Shown one piece after another: positions 240 through 5,428 of a stretch of DNA of 5,428 bases. Positions within the stretch are counted from its first letter, which is position 1. The number at the start of each line of letters is the position of its first letter. Under the pieces are notes generated by a model. The model was not told the DNA's origin, did no database searches, and saw only the letters and a list, made by a program, of their open reading frames with translations. This DNA is from a virus (lineage: Duplodnaviria > Heunggongvirae > Uroviricota > Caudoviricetes). Both the position numbers and the translations under genes were made by a program. Location: positions 1 to 5,428 of the IMG/VR virus record IMGVR_UViG_2778261035_000008; one strand, written 5' to 3'.

Positions 240-827
240 CCGTTTAACTCCGTGGTTAATGGGTGCAACTATTTTCTGTTGGGCAGTGCATGAGACGCTA
301 TTTGACCTGACTGGTCAGTGGATGAAACAACAGATAAAGAAAAGGCGGGCAATCAGATTGCCTGTCCTGATTTGTACTCACTCATTTTCCGACTGACAGT
401 TTACATAGCCAAAACGCTATCAAATCTGACAGCCTGCTTGAGCGAGGAGCAGGCCTTGCAACTTCGTAGGCGCACTTTTAATATTTTTATGGGCAGTTAA
501 AAAACTTGTGGTATAAAGGCTCACCTACTGAACGTACTGTTGAATGAAGCGGGGTCTACAAGAATGAAAAAAATACGAACAGAACCGCCAACCGTTTCGG
601 TGAATAAATTAGTTTACGCTTATCCTGCACACTATTAATTTTAGAATCAAAAAAGACCAACTAAAATACAAAATAATTTTTACAGTGATTAGTTAATCAT
701 GAAAATATAAAGATAATCAAAACCACCACTTAAATTAACTGACACCCAAGCCTTGCAATGAAGATAACCCCCCGCAGCAGCGAGGTAATATCTTTTGTAT
801 CTATGTCGCAAAATATCACTCTTTTAC

Positions 828-856
828 TTGCTTAGAGCCCTCATAAGAGATACTTT
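828..856 (+). promoter_or_regulatory. Candidate sigma70-type promoter for the cargo gene (-35 TTGCTT 828..833, 17-nt spacer, -10 TACTTT 851..856)
   Basis: Read by eye in the AT-rich leader about 40 nt upstream of the ATG at 893. The -10 matches the consensus only at the T, A and final T positions. AT-rich DNA produces many such matches by chance. Confidence 0.2.
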
Positions 857-892
857 ATCAATCTTTATTCACGAACATCTAAATGGCAAATC

Positions 893-3055
893 ATGATAAA
901 CAATATAGTTATAAATAAAGTTGCAAGTTATAAGTCAAAATCAGAGTTAAATACTGATAAAAAAGTAAATATTATTTATGGTTTAAATGGAACAGGTAAA
1001 AGCACCTTCTCCAATTATTTCTATGACATAGATAATAAAAAATATGAGAATTGTTCCCACTCAGGTGAGTATGATGAAATCCTTGTCTACAATCAGAAAT
1101 TCATTCAGGATAACTTTTATGCAAAGGATTCTTTAAATGGAATATTTAGCTTGTCCAAGGAAAATAAAGAAGCAAAAGAAAAGGTTGAGAGCCTCACATT
1201 AGAAATAATAAAACTATCTGATGAAAAACGTGAAATTGAAAAAGAAATAACAGCACAAAACACCTCTGTTTCTGATGCAAAAAACAAAGCTCAAAATAAA
1301 ACATGGGAAATAAAAACCAACTATTCAGGTGGTGACAGGGTCCTTGAATTTTGTTTATTAGGAAAAATGGGAAGTAAAGAATCATTATTCAACCATCTTT
1401 GCTCCATTCCTTTACCTAATTCTAAGCCATCAAAAAACATCTCTGACTTAAAAGAAGAAGCAAGTGCGATTGATGGCGAAACAGCAATAAAATACAGCAT
1501 GCTAGAGGAGATTCACACCATCGTATTATCACTCGATGAAGTGGAATTACTTCAGAATATAATTGTGGGAAGTACAGATAGTCCCGTTTCATATCTTATA
1601 AGTAAGCTTCAGAACTCTGATTGGGTAAATGAAGGACTAAAATACTTAGAACAAACAGGAGATTCTCAGTGTCCATTTTGTCAATCTCAAATTATAACTG
1701 AAAACTTGGTTCAGCATATTCGCAACTATTTCGATGAAACGTATCAAGATAGTGTAAAAAAAATAAAATCCATTCAGACCAAATATAACTCATTGATTGA
1801 CAGTATTCCTTCACTGGATACTTATAAAGAATGCAAACTATCTTCAAATTATATAGTTCAATTAAGCGACTGTTACGCCCTGTTAAGAAAAGATACAGAG
1901 AGCAACTTGGAACTAATAAAGCAGAAGGTAACAAACCCCAGTACCCCAGTAACGCTGAATGATATATCCAACTCTGTTGATAACTTCAATTCATTAGTGA
2001 AATTAGTGAACAATGAAATAACCACACATAACTCAAAAATAGACAATGCAAAACACGAGCTAGAAAAAATAAAAATTTCTTTCTGGCAGCTCTTAAGGTA
2101 TGAGTATGATCAAACAATTTTAAATTTCAACGAAATAAAAGAAAGTGCAAACATTATAACAATCAGAAAAAACACCGCCAAAGATGAAAAAGAAGCAAAA
2201 ATAAAGACTAAAGATGCAGAACGGATTGAATATCAGAAATCAACAGTAAATATAGATGATGCCGTATTCAACATAAACCAAGGTTTAAATGACATCGGAA
2301 TCACAGATTTTCACATCGCAAAATATGAGGATACTCTTTATCGCATAGTACGTAATGACTCTAATTCTAAAGTATTCTCATCATTAAGTGAAGGCGAAAA
2401 AATGATTATCAGCCTTTTGTATTTTAGAGAACTATTCAGAGGTAAAAGAGTCGCCACCGAGGGTAAAACCAAAAAAATAGCTATAATCGATGATCCTGTA
2501 TCAAGCTTATCACATATTTTTGTCTACAATATAGGCCAACTAATAAAAAATGATTTCTTTAACTCTAATGAAATAGAGCAGATATTTGTTTTATCTCACA
2601 GCTTATATTTTTTCTATGAACTCGCTGATGCAAACCATGAAAGAAGAAAAGAAAATCAAAATTTATTTAGGCTTTCTAAAAACTCCAACGGCAGTTCAAT
2701 TATCTTAATGAAATACGATGAAATACAAAATGACTACCAGTCTTATTGGTCAGTAATCAATGATGACAAACAGCCTCCTGCCTTAATTGCTAACTGCATG
2801 AGAAATATAATTGAATACTTTTTCAATTTTGTACAAAAAGCAGATTTAAGCAATGTCACTCAAAAACCAGAGTTAAAAAAACCACGATTTCAATCCTTTA
2901 TTCGCTACATAAACAGAGAGTCACACTCATTAGGACAGAACATTTTTGACTTCAAGGAATTTAACTATAATGATTTCAAAGAAGGGCTTAGATTAGTGTT
3001 TGAGCACACAGGTTATTCTGCACATTATAAAAAAATGGCAAAAATAAAGAACTAA
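893..3055 (+). CDS. ABC-type ATPase with a CxxC-containing insertion and putative C-terminal nuclease domain; candidate RloC/PrrC-like anticodon nuclease (anti-phage abortive-infection protein). Function is inferred.
   Basis: 720-codon ORF, ATG 893 to TAA 3053..3055. An in-frame stop at 833..835 and no alternative start codon between make 893 the only possible start; no canonical SD. Motifs read from the translation: Walker A GLNGTGKST (aa 30-38, nt 980..1006); CPFC (aa 260-263, nt 1670..1681) in a Lys/Glu-rich region between Walker A and signature; signature-like LSEGEK (aa 498-503, nt 2384..2401); Walker B KIAIIDD(P) (aa 528-535, nt 2474..2497); H-loop-like VLSHS (His569, nt 2597..2599). 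C-terminal domain (aa ~585-720) has R637-x3-E641 (nt 2801..2815) and H678 (nt 2924..2926). Confidence that this is a real gene is ~0.9; confidence in the RloC/PrrC-like call is ~0.45. Confidence 0.8.
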   Translation: MINNIVINKVASYKSKSELNTDKKVNIIYGLNGTGKSTFSNYFYDIDNKKYENCSHSGEYDEILVYNQKFIQDNFYAKDSLNGIFSLSKENKEAKEKVESLTLEIIKLSDEKREIEKEITAQNTSVSDAKNKAQNKTWEIKTNYSGGDRVLEFCLLGKMGSKESLFNHLCSIPLPNSKPSKNISDLKEEASAIDGETAIKYSMLEEIHTIVLSLDEVELLQNIIVGSTDSPVSYLISKLQNSDWVNEGLKYLEQTGDSQCPFCQSQIITENLVQHIRNYFDETYQDSVKKIKSIQTKYNSLIDSIPSLDTYKECKLSSNYIVQLSDCYALLRKDTESNLELIKQKVTNPSTPVTLNDISNSVDNFNSLVKLVNNEITTHNSKIDNAKHELEKIKISFWQLLRYEYDQTILNFNEIKESANIITIRKNTAKDEKEAKIKTKDAERIEYQKSTVNIDDAVFNINQGLNDIGITDFHIAKYEDTLYRIVRNDSNSKVFSSLSEGEKMIISLLYFRELFRGKRVATEGKTKKIAIIDDPVSSLSHIFVYNIGQLIKNDFFNSNEIEQIFVLSHSLYFFYELADANHERRKENQNLFRLSKNSNGSSIILMKYDEIQNDYQSYWSVINDDKQPPALIANCMRNIIEYFFNFVQKADLSNVTQKPELKKPRFQSFIRYINRESHSLGQNIFDFKEFNYNDFKEGLRLVFEHTGYSAHYKKMAKIKN

Positions 3056-3100
3056 AAAACCGCAGTATATGGTTCAATGACTGAATTAATTATTCATCAC

Positions 3101-3131
3101 AGCCTATCAGGGATTTTATTATTGATAGGCT
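3101..3131. terminator. Stem-loop between convergent genes; possible intrinsic terminator for the cargo gene
   Basis: Perfect 9-bp inverted repeat AGCCTATCA (3101..3109) / TGATAGGCT (3123..3131) with a 13-nt loop, 46 nt after the cargo stop codon, followed on the + strand by ATTTATCTTATATAT. The tail is T-rich but not a clean T-run. Confidence 0.4.
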
Positions 3132-3200
3132 ATTTATCTTATATATCACCATGTTCGCATATCTGCTATTGCTTGCCCCTCCCGCTATCTAGCATGATCT

Positions 3201-3236
3201 TGACAGCTTCCGCTCGTGGCACAGAGCGGACTGTCA
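3201..3236 (-). terminator. Imperfect GC-rich hairpin downstream of gene G; possible terminator of the H-G tail fiber transcript
   Basis: TGACAG-CTTC-CGCTC / GAGCG-GA-CTGTCA around a GTGGCACA loop, about 60 nt past the G stop on the minus strand. No clear U-tract on the minus strand, so the terminator role is uncertain. Confidence 0.25.
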
Positions 3237-3292
3237 GATTAGGCTTTACTCTGTGCCATAGATATGTAAGCTCACACCAGAGCTCATACAAC

Positions 3293-3820
3293 TTATTGCG
3301 GCATTTCCGGCCATTCAGGATTTGCAGGATCCACACGACTGACCAGAACGCTGTAGCGTTCCCATGCTTCCAGTCGGCTGCGCTCCTCATCTGTTGCCAT
3401 GTTCAGTCTGACCGCGCGCTCCAGCAGCAAAATCACGGATTCAGCTTCGGAAAGTAAAGTTGCCTTTTGTGATTCTGCCAGTTGATGCTGTTCGTCTGCC
3501 GTATAAATCCGCTTAATCACGGCACCATCCTTAAACATCCATTTACCTGAGTCATCAGCACGTCGGTTGGCGGTAATATCAGGAACCTCGACAACGCTAA
3601 AACCTTCAGGGTTAAGCGTTGAAGCATCTCTGGTGATGCCGACAATTATATTATTCTCGTCGTAAACAATCTTTATCGTGTCTTCCTGAAAATTACTTAC
3701 TTCCTCATACCAGTTTTTTCCGTCTTCAGACCATAACCAGATAACATCAAAATTTTTTGTCAGTTGATATTGAGCAACAGTTTTGGGATTACCCGCAGTA
3801 ATATTTTTTAAATGCTGCAT
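3293..3820 (-). CDS. G: Tail fiber assembly (chaperone) protein, P2 gpG-like
   Basis: 175-codon ORF, ATG at 3820..3818 and TAA at 3295..3293. Translation [41 protein letters not shown]...[13 protein letters not shown] is recognised as P2 gpG-type tail fiber assembly protein (from memory). The start lies 3 nt after the H stop, with an AGGTG SD inside the last H codons, which is typical H-G coupling. Confidence 0.9.
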
Positions 3821-3823
3821 AAA

Positions 3824-5428
3824 TTACACCTGTGCGACGTTATACCATGTGCCATTGATGTATTTTTGTATTGGTCTGAATACTGCGGGGTCATCACCAT
3901 CGACTTCACCGACAATACCAAGCCCTGTAATTACATGGCCTGATTTTTCATACATCACACCTTTTTGCATAGTCTGAACAATACGTGTGCCCAGGCGAAT
4001 ATCTCGTACATAGCGAGAATCCGATTCAGCTTTGGTATATGCACCAACATCTCCCGCAGAGGGTTTGCGGGTTGTGGTGTAAAACTCTGACCAGTCAGCC
4101 TCAAATCCATAACCATCACGTGCTGAACGATAAAAAATACCGCCGTTCTTATAATTCACACGGAACTGTACGGCAGGGCAACTCCCCGCATTCATATTGA
4201 AGTGGAGGATTAATGTCGATGCACCGCTGATATCTGCATCATAAACACCGCTATTCCAGTTCCAGCCAACAGCTTTATCATTTGCAACCCTGCTTCCTGT
4301 TTGCCCTAAAGCAAATGCAGGCTGCTGGTTTTTCGTGTTGTAGTCTCGTCGCCAGCCGGGGGCATAAGCATCACCATGATTAATATAAGTGAATTGAGCG
4401 TTAGTGGTGCCGCCTCCGGTAGAAGTGCTTGGTGTTGTTACACGGATGGTCATGGCACCTTTATTACCCATAACCTCAATAACGCAACCTGCAAGATGAA
4501 TAGTTCCACAGCCAGTATCGGTAATAATTTTATTATTGCCGTATGACCATGAACATTTGCACATCCAGTACGGATGATTAAATGCACCACGGGAATCCAG
4601 CCATTCAATAAACTGAGCGGTTGTCCAGTTTCCGGCTTCAGTGCTCAAAGCGCCGCTATAAGCACGACAGGCACCGATATTTTTCGTGAAGGTATCCTTT
4701 CCCGGAATATCCGCACCGTTCTGATCTTTCTGAAGACGTTTTTCAGCATTGTCATAGGCAGACTTCACCGCTTTTGGTGTTGCGGCCAGCGTTTCCGAAT
4801 CACTGTTGGTGGCGCTACTGAGCTGGACAAGGCCTTTCCGCGCCGTGGTGGCATCCTGCGCAGTGTATTTCCCGTTAGCAAGGTCATACGCTGTCTTAAC
4901 CGCCTTTGGAGTTGCTGCAAGCGTTTCAGAATCGCTGTTGGTGGCGCTACTGAGCTGGACAAGGCCTTTTCGCGTTGTGGTGGCGTCCTGTGCAGTGTAT
5001 TTCCCGTTAGCAAGGTCATATGCTGCCTTTACCGCTTTCGGCGTTGCGGCCAGTGTTTCAGACGTGCTGTTGGTCGCACTGCTTAACTGAGTAAAACCTT
5101 TTGCGGTCAGCGAGGCGTCAGGGTGACGTCGTGACTGTTCATGTTCTGCAATTTTGTCATCAACGTAATCCTGCGTTGCCATCACCGTTGTGGTGTCAAT
5201 GGTCAGCTCCACTGAGGCCACACTGCTGACGATGATGACCATGCGGCAGGTCTGCGAACGCCCTGAGCCTTCGGCAAGGGCTGGCTTATAACTTTCGGCC
5301 ATGTTCGCCACGGCAATTAACGTTCCCGCATCATCGTACAGGCCAAGCTCTCGCATCCAGAAACCGCCCACCTCCGGCGGAATAACCAGCTCTGCGATAA
5401 TATAATTACTGTTTCGTTTGTCCTGGCT
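3824..5428 (-). CDS. H: Tail fiber protein (P2 gpH-like N-terminal region, divergent C-terminal receptor-binding region); 5' end lies beyond the window's right edge
   Basis: Minus-strand frame is open from the window edge (5428) to TAA at 3826..3824. The ORF track's M at 5371 is a GTG codon; the frame upstream reads SQDKRNSNYIIAELVIPPEV without a stop, so the true start is outside the window. The part reading ...GGFWMRELGLYDDAGTLIAVANMAESYKPALAEGSGR...TIDTTTVMATQDYVDDKIAEH matches P2 gpH as I recall it, followed by tandem fiber repeats (SSATNSxSETLAATPKAVKxAYD) and a distinct C-terminal domain. Confidence 0.9.
   Translation of the reverse strand, partial: SQDKRNSNYIIAELVIPPEVGGFWMRELGLYDDAGTLIAVANMAESYKPALAEGSGRSQTCRMVIIVSSVASVELTIDTTTVMATQDYVDDKIAEHEQSRRHPDASLTAKGFTQLSSATNSTSETLAATPKAVKAAYDLANGKYTAQDATTTRKGLVQLSSATNSDSETLAATPKAVKTAYDLANGKYTAQDATTARKGLVQLSSATNSDSETLAATPKAVKSAYDNAEKRLQKDQNGADIPGKDTFTKNIGACRAYSGALSTEAGNWTTAQFIEWLDSRGAFNHPYWMCKCSWSYGNNKIITDTGCGTIHLAGCVIEVMGNKGAMTIRVTTPSTSTGGGTTNAQFTYINHGDAYAPGWRRDYNTKNQQPAFALGQTGSRVANDKAVGWNWNSGVYDADISGASTLILHFNMNAGSCPAVQFRVNYKNGGIFYRSARDGYGFEADWSEFYTTTRKPSAGDVGAYTKAESDSRYVRDIRLGTRIVQTMQKGVMYEKSGHVITGLGIVGEVDGDDPAVFRPIQKYINGTWYNVAQV
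4745..5101. repeat. Direct tandem repeat, 132-bp period, about 2.7 copies, inside tail fiber gene H (encodes 44-aa fiber repeats)
   Basis: Copies at 4970..5101, 4838..4969 and a partial copy at 4745..4837. The 132-bp period was verified by matching anchors (ACCGCTTTTGGTGT at 4767..4780 vs ACCGCCTTTGGAGT at 4899..4912 vs ACCGCTTTCGGCGT at 5031..5044). The protein repeats are KGFTQLSSATNSTSETLAATPKAVKAAYDLANGKYTAQDATTTR / KGLVQLSSATNSDSETLAATPKAVKTAYDLANGKYTAQDATTAR / KGLVQLSSATNSDSETLAATPKAVKSAYD. Confidence 0.85.

Follow-up and report, generated by a model that had tools for sequence, protein, structure and literature searches.

The question raised by this locus is how a phage can carry the gene of a potentially toxic effector with no controlling partner gene visible beside it. 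The locus lies in a stretch of 5,428 nucleotides (nt) of IMG/VR record IMGVR_UViG_2778261035_000008, called the window in the following and corresponding to the tail region of a P2-like prophage; within it, the locus is the interval between the tail genes FI and G, and the effector gene codes for a protein of 720 residues. The initial annotation had framed this protein as a relative of PrrC, a nuclease silenced by a type I restriction-modification (R-M) complex, and had left the choice between a self-regulated protein and a small partner that had been missed. We consider it probable that the interval is a moron slot holding a 2.8-kb cassette which encodes a self-silenced anticodon nuclease of the RloC family, with no need of a partner in cis. 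The observation that prompted the question is thus sound and its explanation is already in the literature: the “missing partner” is a published property that distinguishes RloC from PrrC, and since the RloC family is known to travel without a partner, its absence is to be expected and is neither an anomaly nor a puzzle.

RloC proteins were described by Davidov and Kaufmann (2008) as combining the motifs of an ABC ATPase with a helical insert whose centre bears a CX2C zinc hook as in Rad50, and with a C-proximal triad Arg-X3-Glu-X36-52-His, often with Ser before the His, in a chain of 658-897 residues. The genes are mostly unlinked to R-M genes, a minority being inserted in type I or III R-M loci. 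Each of these properties is found in the window protein. The Walker A motif GLNGTGKST (residues 30-38; nt 980-1006) lies in the N-lobe of the ATPase, and the signature LSEGEK (498-503; nt 2384-2401), the Walker B residues D533-D534 (in DDP, 533-535) and H569 (nt 2597-2599) lie in the C-lobe. The helical insert carries C260-P-F-C263 (nt 1670-1681) in its coiled coil, where zinc binding is putative, and the C-terminal part carries R637-NII-E641 (nt 2801-2815), 36 further residues and S677-H678 (nt 2921-2926), giving the triad R637-X3-E641-X36-S677-H678. The chain length falls inside the published range, and the window copy is unlinked to R-M genes. By all criteria that can be tested on a sequence, the protein is a member of the RloC family.

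Profile searches place the protein in the same group. The Pfam family AAA_13 matched over the full length (E 2.9e-107; profile positions 2-708 of 713), and the PADLOC profile PDC-S06 (PDLC04886) matched residues 1-717 over positions 1-723 of 727 with E 1.4e-254, as did, with their own matches, six further PDC-S06 profiles, which identifies the predicted protein as the PADLOC candidate PDC-S06. AAA_21, the AbiEii-associated ATPase family, scored 23 bits, under its cut-off of 27, while the NCBIfam profile search returned no family and the PDB sequence search no match for the protein. In their source records, relatives at 57-59% identity bear the names “Translation-disabling ACNase RloC” or “wobble nucleotide-excising tRNase”, and nearly all of the full-length relatives listed have about 710-800 residues.

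The motifs are invariant in 25 homologues of 57-90% identity. Among 121 more distant cluster representatives (28-58% identity), C260, P261, C263 and R637 are present in all 121, position 641 is Glu in 113 and Asp in eight, S677-H678 is kept in 116-119 and H678 by itself in 119, and conservation along the protein is highest over the last 110 residues. Such a pattern indicates that the predicted ATPase, the zinc hook and the nuclease triad are under purifying selection. The segment R671-YINRES-H678 fits the HEPN motif Rx4-6H in the form Rx6H, with R671 in 116 of the 121 representatives and H678 as given above. In RloC as in PrrC, the nuclease domain has been placed in HEPN, and ABC-HEPN proteins have been reported from prophage islands (PMC3710099).

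A first AlphaFold 2 (AF2) model built from 25 sequences reached a predicted local distance difference test score (pLDDT) of 68, with the ATPase head under 50, and was replaced by a model from 126 sequences with a mean pLDDT of 88. In the latter the ATPase head is split, the helical insert has a long helix on each side (89-144 and 406-449), and the region 608-720 is all-alpha. The best Foldseek matches of this model in the PDB were Rad50 (E 5e-8), SMC heads, Lamassu LmuB and retron-associated ATPases, the top hits having E values from 5e-8 to 1e-4. Rad50/SbcC and LmuB, the best structural matches, have in common with the modelled protein an ATPase head from which a coiled coil emerges, in Rad50 also with a CXXC hook; they differ in having no fused RNase, and act together with separate nuclease subunits (Mre11/SbcD and LmuA, respectively).

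The PrrC framing of the initial annotation had to give way to RloC. PrrC, the tRNA-Lys anticodon nuclease linked to the type Ic R-M system EcoprrI, has in common with the window protein the ABC motifs and the Arg-Glu-His triad; the C-terminal domain of HEPN type and the abortive-infection logic by which translation is shut off are predicted for the window protein as well. PrrC differs in having 341-416 residues and no coiled-coil/zinc-hook insert, and in being found always in an hsdMSR locus whose product silences it. The window protein has 720 residues and an insert of about 370 residues, coiled coil with CXXC, between the ATPase lobes, there is no R-M gene in the window, and the PADLOC model for PrrC reaches its P-loop only; because size, insert and R-M linkage all fail, PrrC identity was rejected, and the protein is, as judged from these features, better described as RloC-like. 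The PADLOC PrrC model is matched over its C-terminal two thirds by distant family members (E 1e-16 to 2e-7), which ties the nuclease region of the family to that of PrrC.

The closest counterparts are the RloC proteins of Geobacillus kaustophilus (GkaRloC) and Acinetobacter baylyi (AbaRloC) (Davidov and Kaufmann 2008; Klaiman et al. 2012, 2014), which have the same split ABC ATPase, CX2C hook, triad and size range. They are also alike in occurring mostly alone, a minority being embedded in operons of type I R-M systems, in being often the sole cargo of prophages, transposons and plasmids, and in having a weak translation signal that predicts low expression. The window protein is shorter (720 against about 800-826 residues), has the minimal triad spacing of X36, and belongs to a clade that PADLOC lists as the candidate system PDC-S06. 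Proteins of the APECO1_4465 type (Anantharaman et al. 2013, PMC3710099) show the fusion of an ABC ATPase with a C-terminal HEPN RNase that is predicted here and are reported as frequent in prophages. A functional parallel from the same phage group is the Old protein of P2, a single-polypeptide ATPase-gated nuclease and a moron of P2-type phages; it is described as autoinhibited, activated by DNA ends or hairpins, and killing by tRNA cleavage (preprint 10.64898/2026.07.10.737580). Old differs in its effector, which is TOPRIM and not HEPN, in the lack of a coiled-coil zinc hook and in its phage locus, and is related in sequence by the ABC fold only.

The genes on both sides of the interval and the DNA between them define the slot. 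At the position homologous to FI, a phage tail sheath protein is annotated in five homologous loci, and G is annotated as tail fiber assembly protein in such loci. The single long ORF (open reading frame) between FI, which starts at 239, and G is as the initial annotation had described it. The GC (guanine plus cytosine) content is about 50% in the flanks against 28-35% over roughly 450..3150. The backbone of P2, of Wphi and of P2-like prophages that carry other cargo is homologous to the window from 1 to 445-467 and again from 3190-3220 onwards, and the slot flanks of P2, Wphi and many prophages are 80-97% identical to those of the window. An imperfect inverted repeat (423-438 and 3225-3240) lies at the borders of the cargo, where a “left” and a “right inverted repeat” are annotated in GenBank records of the P2 Z region (P2-EC58; AJ512683). 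In related prophages the same slot is occupied by a SMEK-domain protein, a Shedu nuclease, SIR2, LPO_1073, “lysogenic conversion” proteins and others, and in P2 and Wphi by the classical ORF of the Z/fun region. With its place between G and FI, its conserved backbone, its inverted repeats and its differing cargo, the interval corresponds to the Z/fun slot in which P2-like phages carry variable morons. The effector locus had at first been taken as the whole interval from 300 onwards; the intergenic interval begins at 240, and only about 439..3231 (+) is cargo, 240..~450 and ~3200..3292 being phage backbone.

Close relatives of the gene (79-90% protein identity) occupy at least five unrelated contexts with no common neighbour gene, a comparison of homologous loci that had been proposed as a check at the outset. 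These contexts are an island with a SymE toxin gene and DUF6602 in Raoultella, a site in an Enterobacteriaceae isolate with an Hcp island on one side and the psp operon on the other, an island with DUF3944/HTH and SMEK-TPR, another with an integrase and a DUF4365 gene, surroundings of unannotated small ORFs, and the P2 slot itself. The extent of DNA homology with the window varies among them: it covers 554/555..3135 in three loci and only 776-810..3132-3170 in three more, shrinking to 784/810..3132. In relatives of about 70% identity it runs from the ATG to just short of the stop codon, with no flanking DNA in common. What all close contexts keep, as a minimal unit, is the gene together with about 85-110 nt of upstream and about 77 nt of downstream sequence.

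In a wider search the relatives amounted to 2892 cluster representatives at E<=1e-3, with 224 plasmid records and few phages, and members of the family occur in many genera, carried by phages, plasmids and islands. When the window was compared by megablast with 5426 complete E. coli genomes, its flanks turned up in 2667 of them and the central gene in two, which are near-identical; a distant blastn search for the RloC of E. coli APEC O1 found nothing further. The cargo is therefore rare in E. coli, with relatives common elsewhere. Among the more remote relatives are one in Enterobacter phage ENT4 (PV844615, 31 kb) at 33% identity, those of Streptococcus Javan phages at 25% identity, annotated as “translation-disabling ACNase”, and a homologue on Lactococcus plasmids at 49% identity.

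How such a protein could be carried safely is suggested by the work on RloC. GkaRloC cuts out the tRNA wobble nucleotide, and its triad mutants are inactive and non-toxic (PMC3458546; Davidov and Kaufmann 2008). The purified protein is silent alone, its activation requires ATP hydrolysis and linear DNA, and mutations in the zinc hook activate it (PMC3458546), while AbaRloC was switched on in vivo by an inducer of DNA breaks. Klaiman et al. (PMC3458546) drew the conclusion that RloC is silenced and activated by an internal switch and pointed to the solitary transfer of rloC, and the same point is made by Anantharaman et al. (PMC3710099). From its membership in this family we infer that the window protein regulates itself. 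The suggestion of the initial annotation that this might occur through the ATPase/hook module is hence favoured over a missed partner, as all RloC properties are present in the sequence and an internal silencer has been demonstrated for RloC. The cassette would then be a self-contained transcription unit of a weak promoter, the gene and a hairpin terminator, and in its product an ABC ATPase head resembling that of Rad50 would be joined to a coiled-coil insert bearing the CXXC zinc hook and to a C-terminal anticodon nuclease of HEPN type. By analogy with RloC, the nuclease would be held inactive by the hook and the ATPase module of the same chain, and would be released when the head engages DNA, probably ends or breaks arising from infection, and hydrolyses ATP. 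The freed nuclease would cut tRNA anticodon loops, translation would stop and the infecting phage would be aborted, with no antitoxin, sensor or RNA encoded in cis being needed; because no such partner is needed, the gene could spread on its own among phages, plasmids and chromosomal islands. The architecture of domains and motifs, the family membership at sequence level, the limits of the cassette and the lack of a conserved neighbour, small ORF or structured RNA are observed; the tRNase activity, autoinhibition, trigger and defence phenotype are ascribed to the window protein by analogy. The locus would illustrate clearly how an RloC-type self-guarded tRNA nuclease can be the only cargo that a P2-like prophage carries in its tail-region moron slot, and the minimal mobile unit of promoter, gene and terminator is a defined construct for a first phage-defence test of PDC-S06.

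Several points weigh against this interpretation. The assignment to RloC rests on the published criteria, GkaRloC (triad R692/E696/H737) and AbaRloC (826 residues) having been compared by description only, and the 720-residue clade may differ from the characterised RloC proteins in trigger or substrate. For PDC-S06, no experimental test or anti-phage phenotype was found in the literature searched, and a preprint describes an E. coli PDC-S06 protein that was flagged by PADLOC and apparently not called by DefenseFinder; if so, the RloC model of DefenseFinder misses some PDC-S06 members. The PADLOC PrrC model matches the window protein only weakly (E 1e-5, residues 17-81), and the HEPN-type nuclease in the C-terminal region is predicted from the motif and the all-alpha model. 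In addition, 14% of the distant relatives lie in type I R-M operons, and some family members may depend on R-M proteins.

The last point leads to the alternative that survives best, namely that the protein is silenced in trans by a type I or III R-M complex of the host and released by anti-restriction proteins of an infecting phage, as PrrC is with EcoprrI. In a set of 80 loci taken from genome assemblies, with relatives at 45-71% identity and with all flanking ORFs clustered, the only recurrent neighbours were hsdM and hsdS directly upstream and hsdR directly downstream (11 of the 80 loci, mostly Bacteroidota), confirmed by the Pfam families N6_Mtase, Methylase_S and ResIII/EcoEI_R_C. This hsdM-hsdS-[gene]-hsdR order is the “restriction-linked ORF” arrangement behind the name of RloC, at 14% here against the published 8 of 73. 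An Erwiniaceae homologue of 72% identity near an ArdC-type anti-restriction gene is also in favour of silencing in trans, and such interaction was raised by Davidov and Kaufmann and left open by Klaiman et al. (PMC3458546). Against it, purified GkaRloC is silent with no other protein present, responds to ATP and linear DNA and escapes control by hook mutations (PMC3458546); 10-12 of about 72 surveyed RloC proteins come from genomes without type I or III R-M systems (Davidov and Kaufmann 2008); and a need for a specific host partner would make the spread on phages, plasmids and islands over many genera a hazard. We regard control by a host R-M complex as unlikely for the window protein, although it has more in its favour than the remaining alternatives. 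A tightly coupled ORF on the same strand is absent in 47 of the 80 distant loci.

Two observations from these surveys may be recorded here. In two Erwiniaceae loci (L117 and L118) the 72%-identical homologue is near an ArdC-N/MPTase-PolyVal anti-restriction gene and a DUF1281 gene, both downstream, which echoes the linkage of RloC to ArdC in two orthologues noted by Davidov and Kaufmann. In the type I R-M locus L036 (1700-3175), the HsdS specificity subunit encoded directly upstream of the homologue has an N-terminal nucleotidyltransferase domain of Pol-beta type.

The edges of the cassette deserve a closer look. The whole cassette occurs with identical limits at loci without P2 tail genes, i.e. 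a Raoultella chromosome, a Logan contig and an IMG/VR contig. DNA homology with the window covers 438/439..3170/3171 and 3185..3231 in loci L088, L096 and L114, and L098 has the right cassette end in common, its homology beginning at 776. Core sequences at the two ends (~439-455 and 3203-3229) are common to P2 backbones of any cargo and to the non-P2 loci; the left core is about TGAGCGAGGAGCAGRC and the right core TTCCGCTCTTGGCACAGAGCGGAC, and they recur in L088 (3536.. and 6830-6876) and in L114 (2044.. and 5323-5369). These cores look like a recombination site for the exchange of cargo. An extended proposal would be that the 720-residue PDC-S06 clade is a branch of the ABC-HEPN anticodon nucleases that differs in function, having a trigger or tRNA target of its own, that its 2.8-kb cassette is shuttled between the P2 Z/fun slot and other Enterobacterales islands by recombination at the short cores, and that convergent transcription of the late operon could additionally mute the gene during the lytic cycle of its own phage. 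As a whole this proposal is doubtful, its prospects being close to those of host R-M control; if true, it would imply a dedicated cassette-exchange mechanism for single-gene defence morons. Neither the paper of Rousset (2022) on P2 hotspots nor a 2026 preprint on P2 and P4 mentions RloC.

The right end of the cassette differs between loci. An extra segment of about 545 nt, which the window does not have, lies between the positions corresponding to 3171 and 3185 in L088 (6279-6830), L114 (4778-5323) and L096 (5253-5798), and L098 has a 96-nt insertion at the same site (3777-3873). The extra segment had no match in the phage and E. coli genome collections. It contains a minus-strand ORF of 37 residues which is intact in the three loci; its protein identity of about 76% is below the DNA identity of about 85%, so the protein diverges faster than the DNA. 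The ORF is probably non-coding and was for this reason rejected as a partner lost from the window.

Control by the prophage itself has also been considered. The gene is convergent with H and G, and the consensus scan listed no minus-strand site resembling a terminator from the G stop (3293) to 785, so late H-G transcripts may read antisense through the gene. They might end at the hairpin with trailing T-run that the backbone has on its minus strand at 362-348 (~348-362), and might damp expression of the gene during lytic growth of the phage. This is a positional argument from a consensus scan only; the other cargos in the slot lie in either orientation, and the same cassette occurs outside P2-like phages. 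Antisense damping would moreover add a layer to autoinhibition at the protein level and not replace it. As the main means of control it is improbable. A search of 240..450, near FI, for an Ogr-type box (TGT-N12-ACA) gave no exact match.

A small partner encoded in cis, such as an antitoxin peptide, a type I or III antitoxin RNA or a sensor, could have been missed in 439..892, in 3056..3231 or antisense to the gene. About 450 nt of non-coding cargo precede the ATG, several ORFs of 20-40 residues are present within 540..896, the block 555..633 is kept in several contexts, and an antisense ORF at 1117..1287, the most persistent of those inside the gene, is open in most relatives of 81-90% protein identity. 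Comparison of homologous loci nevertheless tells against such a partner, as no flanking ORF keeps its start, frame and length across them. The ORFs 540..638(+), 556..660(-), 609..671(-), 689..811(-), 730..819(-), 758..835(+), 795..896(+) and 3090..3152(-) were all rejected for lost starts, frameshifts or early stops in homologous loci, in agreement with the initial remark that no convincing small ORF is seen in 540..892. The antisense ORFs are not conserved either, that at 1117..1287 having stops in seven of ten homologues of 58-72% identity. Locus L116 keeps 555..633 and lacks 634..774, and L089, L092 and L098 lack everything to the left of 776-810, the gene being intact in all four, while relatives of about 70% identity do without any of the flanking DNA.

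Two longer candidates were judged spurious. The GTG-initiated ORF of 60 residues at 318..500, which exists as first described, gave no Pfam or PADLOC match; since it is mostly backbone, spans the junction and has early stops in three of five P2-like backbones, it is not a partner of the cargo, and in the two other backbones the frame diverges past the junction. The ORF of 126 residues downstream of the gene was rejected, as it crosses the cassette edge and has no PADLOC match, and as other loci have an insertion of 96-550 nt at 3171/3185.

A partner RNA found no better support. An Rfam scan of both strands of the whole window at E<=1 gave no match and a scan for tRNA and tmRNA genes found none. 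Because the only tandem repeats in 240..3300 are three trivial two-copy repeats, all within the gene, an array of the ToxI kind was rejected. The 5' flank is less structured than its shuffles, with fold z-scores of +1.0 to +1.2 for the upstream block and +0.7 for 555..640, and the sole structured element, at 3101..3131, occupies the position of a terminator. What is found is thus unlike a two-gene module of the type II or IV toxin-antitoxin, ToxIN-like or AbiE kind, there being no conserved neighbour, small ORF, repeat array or Rfam family. The initial statement that no partner gene is visible has therefore been borne out by comparative genomics, and neither a conserved small ORF nor a structured partner RNA, which had been named as evidence to the contrary, was found in the flanks on comparing homologous loci. 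We consider a conserved peptide or structured RNA partner in cis very unlikely, and put the missed partner as a whole below antisense control by the prophage.

Least credible of all is that the protein is no toxic nuclease and instead handles DNA as a Rad50/SMC-like ATPase whose C-terminal domain is degenerate, or that it is a relic without activity: its whole-protein structural matches are all DNA-repair or SMC ATPases and the activity of its clade is a prediction, but the triad is strongly conserved (Glu or Asp at 641 in all 121 representatives), as are the last 110 residues, the match of family members to the PrrC model extends through the nuclease domain, and the ORF has its full length with no interruption. 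A relic for comparison may be seen in L096 (IMGVR_UViG_2852055501_000007), where 3001-5135 has about 85% DNA identity with no long ORF and is a decayed pseudogene copy.

Features of the window discussed in the text, with coordinates (position 1 is the first nucleotide of the window)
Feature	Position	Strand	Basis or remark
Tail sheath gene FI, N-terminal 79 codons	3..239	-	Translation; runs on past the window edge
P2-like backbone, intergenic, upstream of FI	240..438		Common to P2-like phages with unrelated cargo
ORF of 60 residues, GTG start	318..500	+	Judged spurious: mostly backbone, crosses junction, not conserved
Backbone hairpin	344..366	both	Terminator-like on both strands; consensus scan
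Low-GC cargo cassette	439..3231	+	About 30-34% GC; identical edges also outside P2-like phages
Conserved upstream block	784..892	+	Sole upstream block kept in all close-relative contexts
RloC-family gene (predicted), 720 residues	893..3055	+	Pfam, PADLOC, motifs
ORF of 126 residues	3077..3457	+	Judged spurious: cargo, across junction, antisense into G
Terminator-type hairpin	3101..3131	+	AGCCTATCA...TGATAGGCT then ATTTATCTT
P2-like backbone downstream of G	3232..3292		Holds part of the right inverted-repeat arm (3225..3240)
Tail-fibre assembly gene G	3293..3820	-	Pfam Caudo_TAP, E 1.1e-33
Tail-fibre gene H	3824..5428	-	Pfam Phage_fiber_2 x3, Phage_tail_fib, gp37_C

The flanks of the gene contain signals that fit a short transcription unit. 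In the conserved upstream block, where homology starts at 775-810 in L089, L092, L098 and L116, the hexamers TTGCTT (828-833) and TACTTT (851-856) are separated by a 17-nt spacer. They may represent a weak promoter, which is our own reading of the sequence, the consensus scan not having listed the site. The 5' untranslated region would be short, and the Shine-Dalgarno sequence, AAGGG in relatives, is weakened to AATGG in the window. Between 861 and 886, the copies borne by P2-like phages in E. coli (the window and L001) differ from every other context by a 7-nt deletion (CCTTGGG) and by the G-to-T change in the Shine-Dalgarno sequence; these leader changes suggest lowered translation in this host or phage. 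No stable 5' structure was found in the upstream block or in 555..640, as judged by the fold z-scores given above. A hairpin sequestering the Shine-Dalgarno sequence, for which CTTTAG...CTAAAG in relatives was a candidate, was rejected, since the two changes of the window break the pairing (as judged by eye) and the fold is weak.

Downstream of the gene, the fold of 3056-3145 has a free energy of -19 kcal/mol with z = -2.96. The terminator-type hairpin within it has nine pairs, with 97.7% of cells paired across ten loci and two compensatory pairs, against 20-45% for slid controls, which fits a terminator of the cassette's transcription unit.

Beyond the slot, the frame of the tail-fibre gene H is open through 5428, its start lying outside the window. 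Within H, at 4745-5102 of the window, are three tandem copies of about 130 nt, corresponding to the three Phage_fiber_2 matches, and these give multiple offset self-matches between related prophages.

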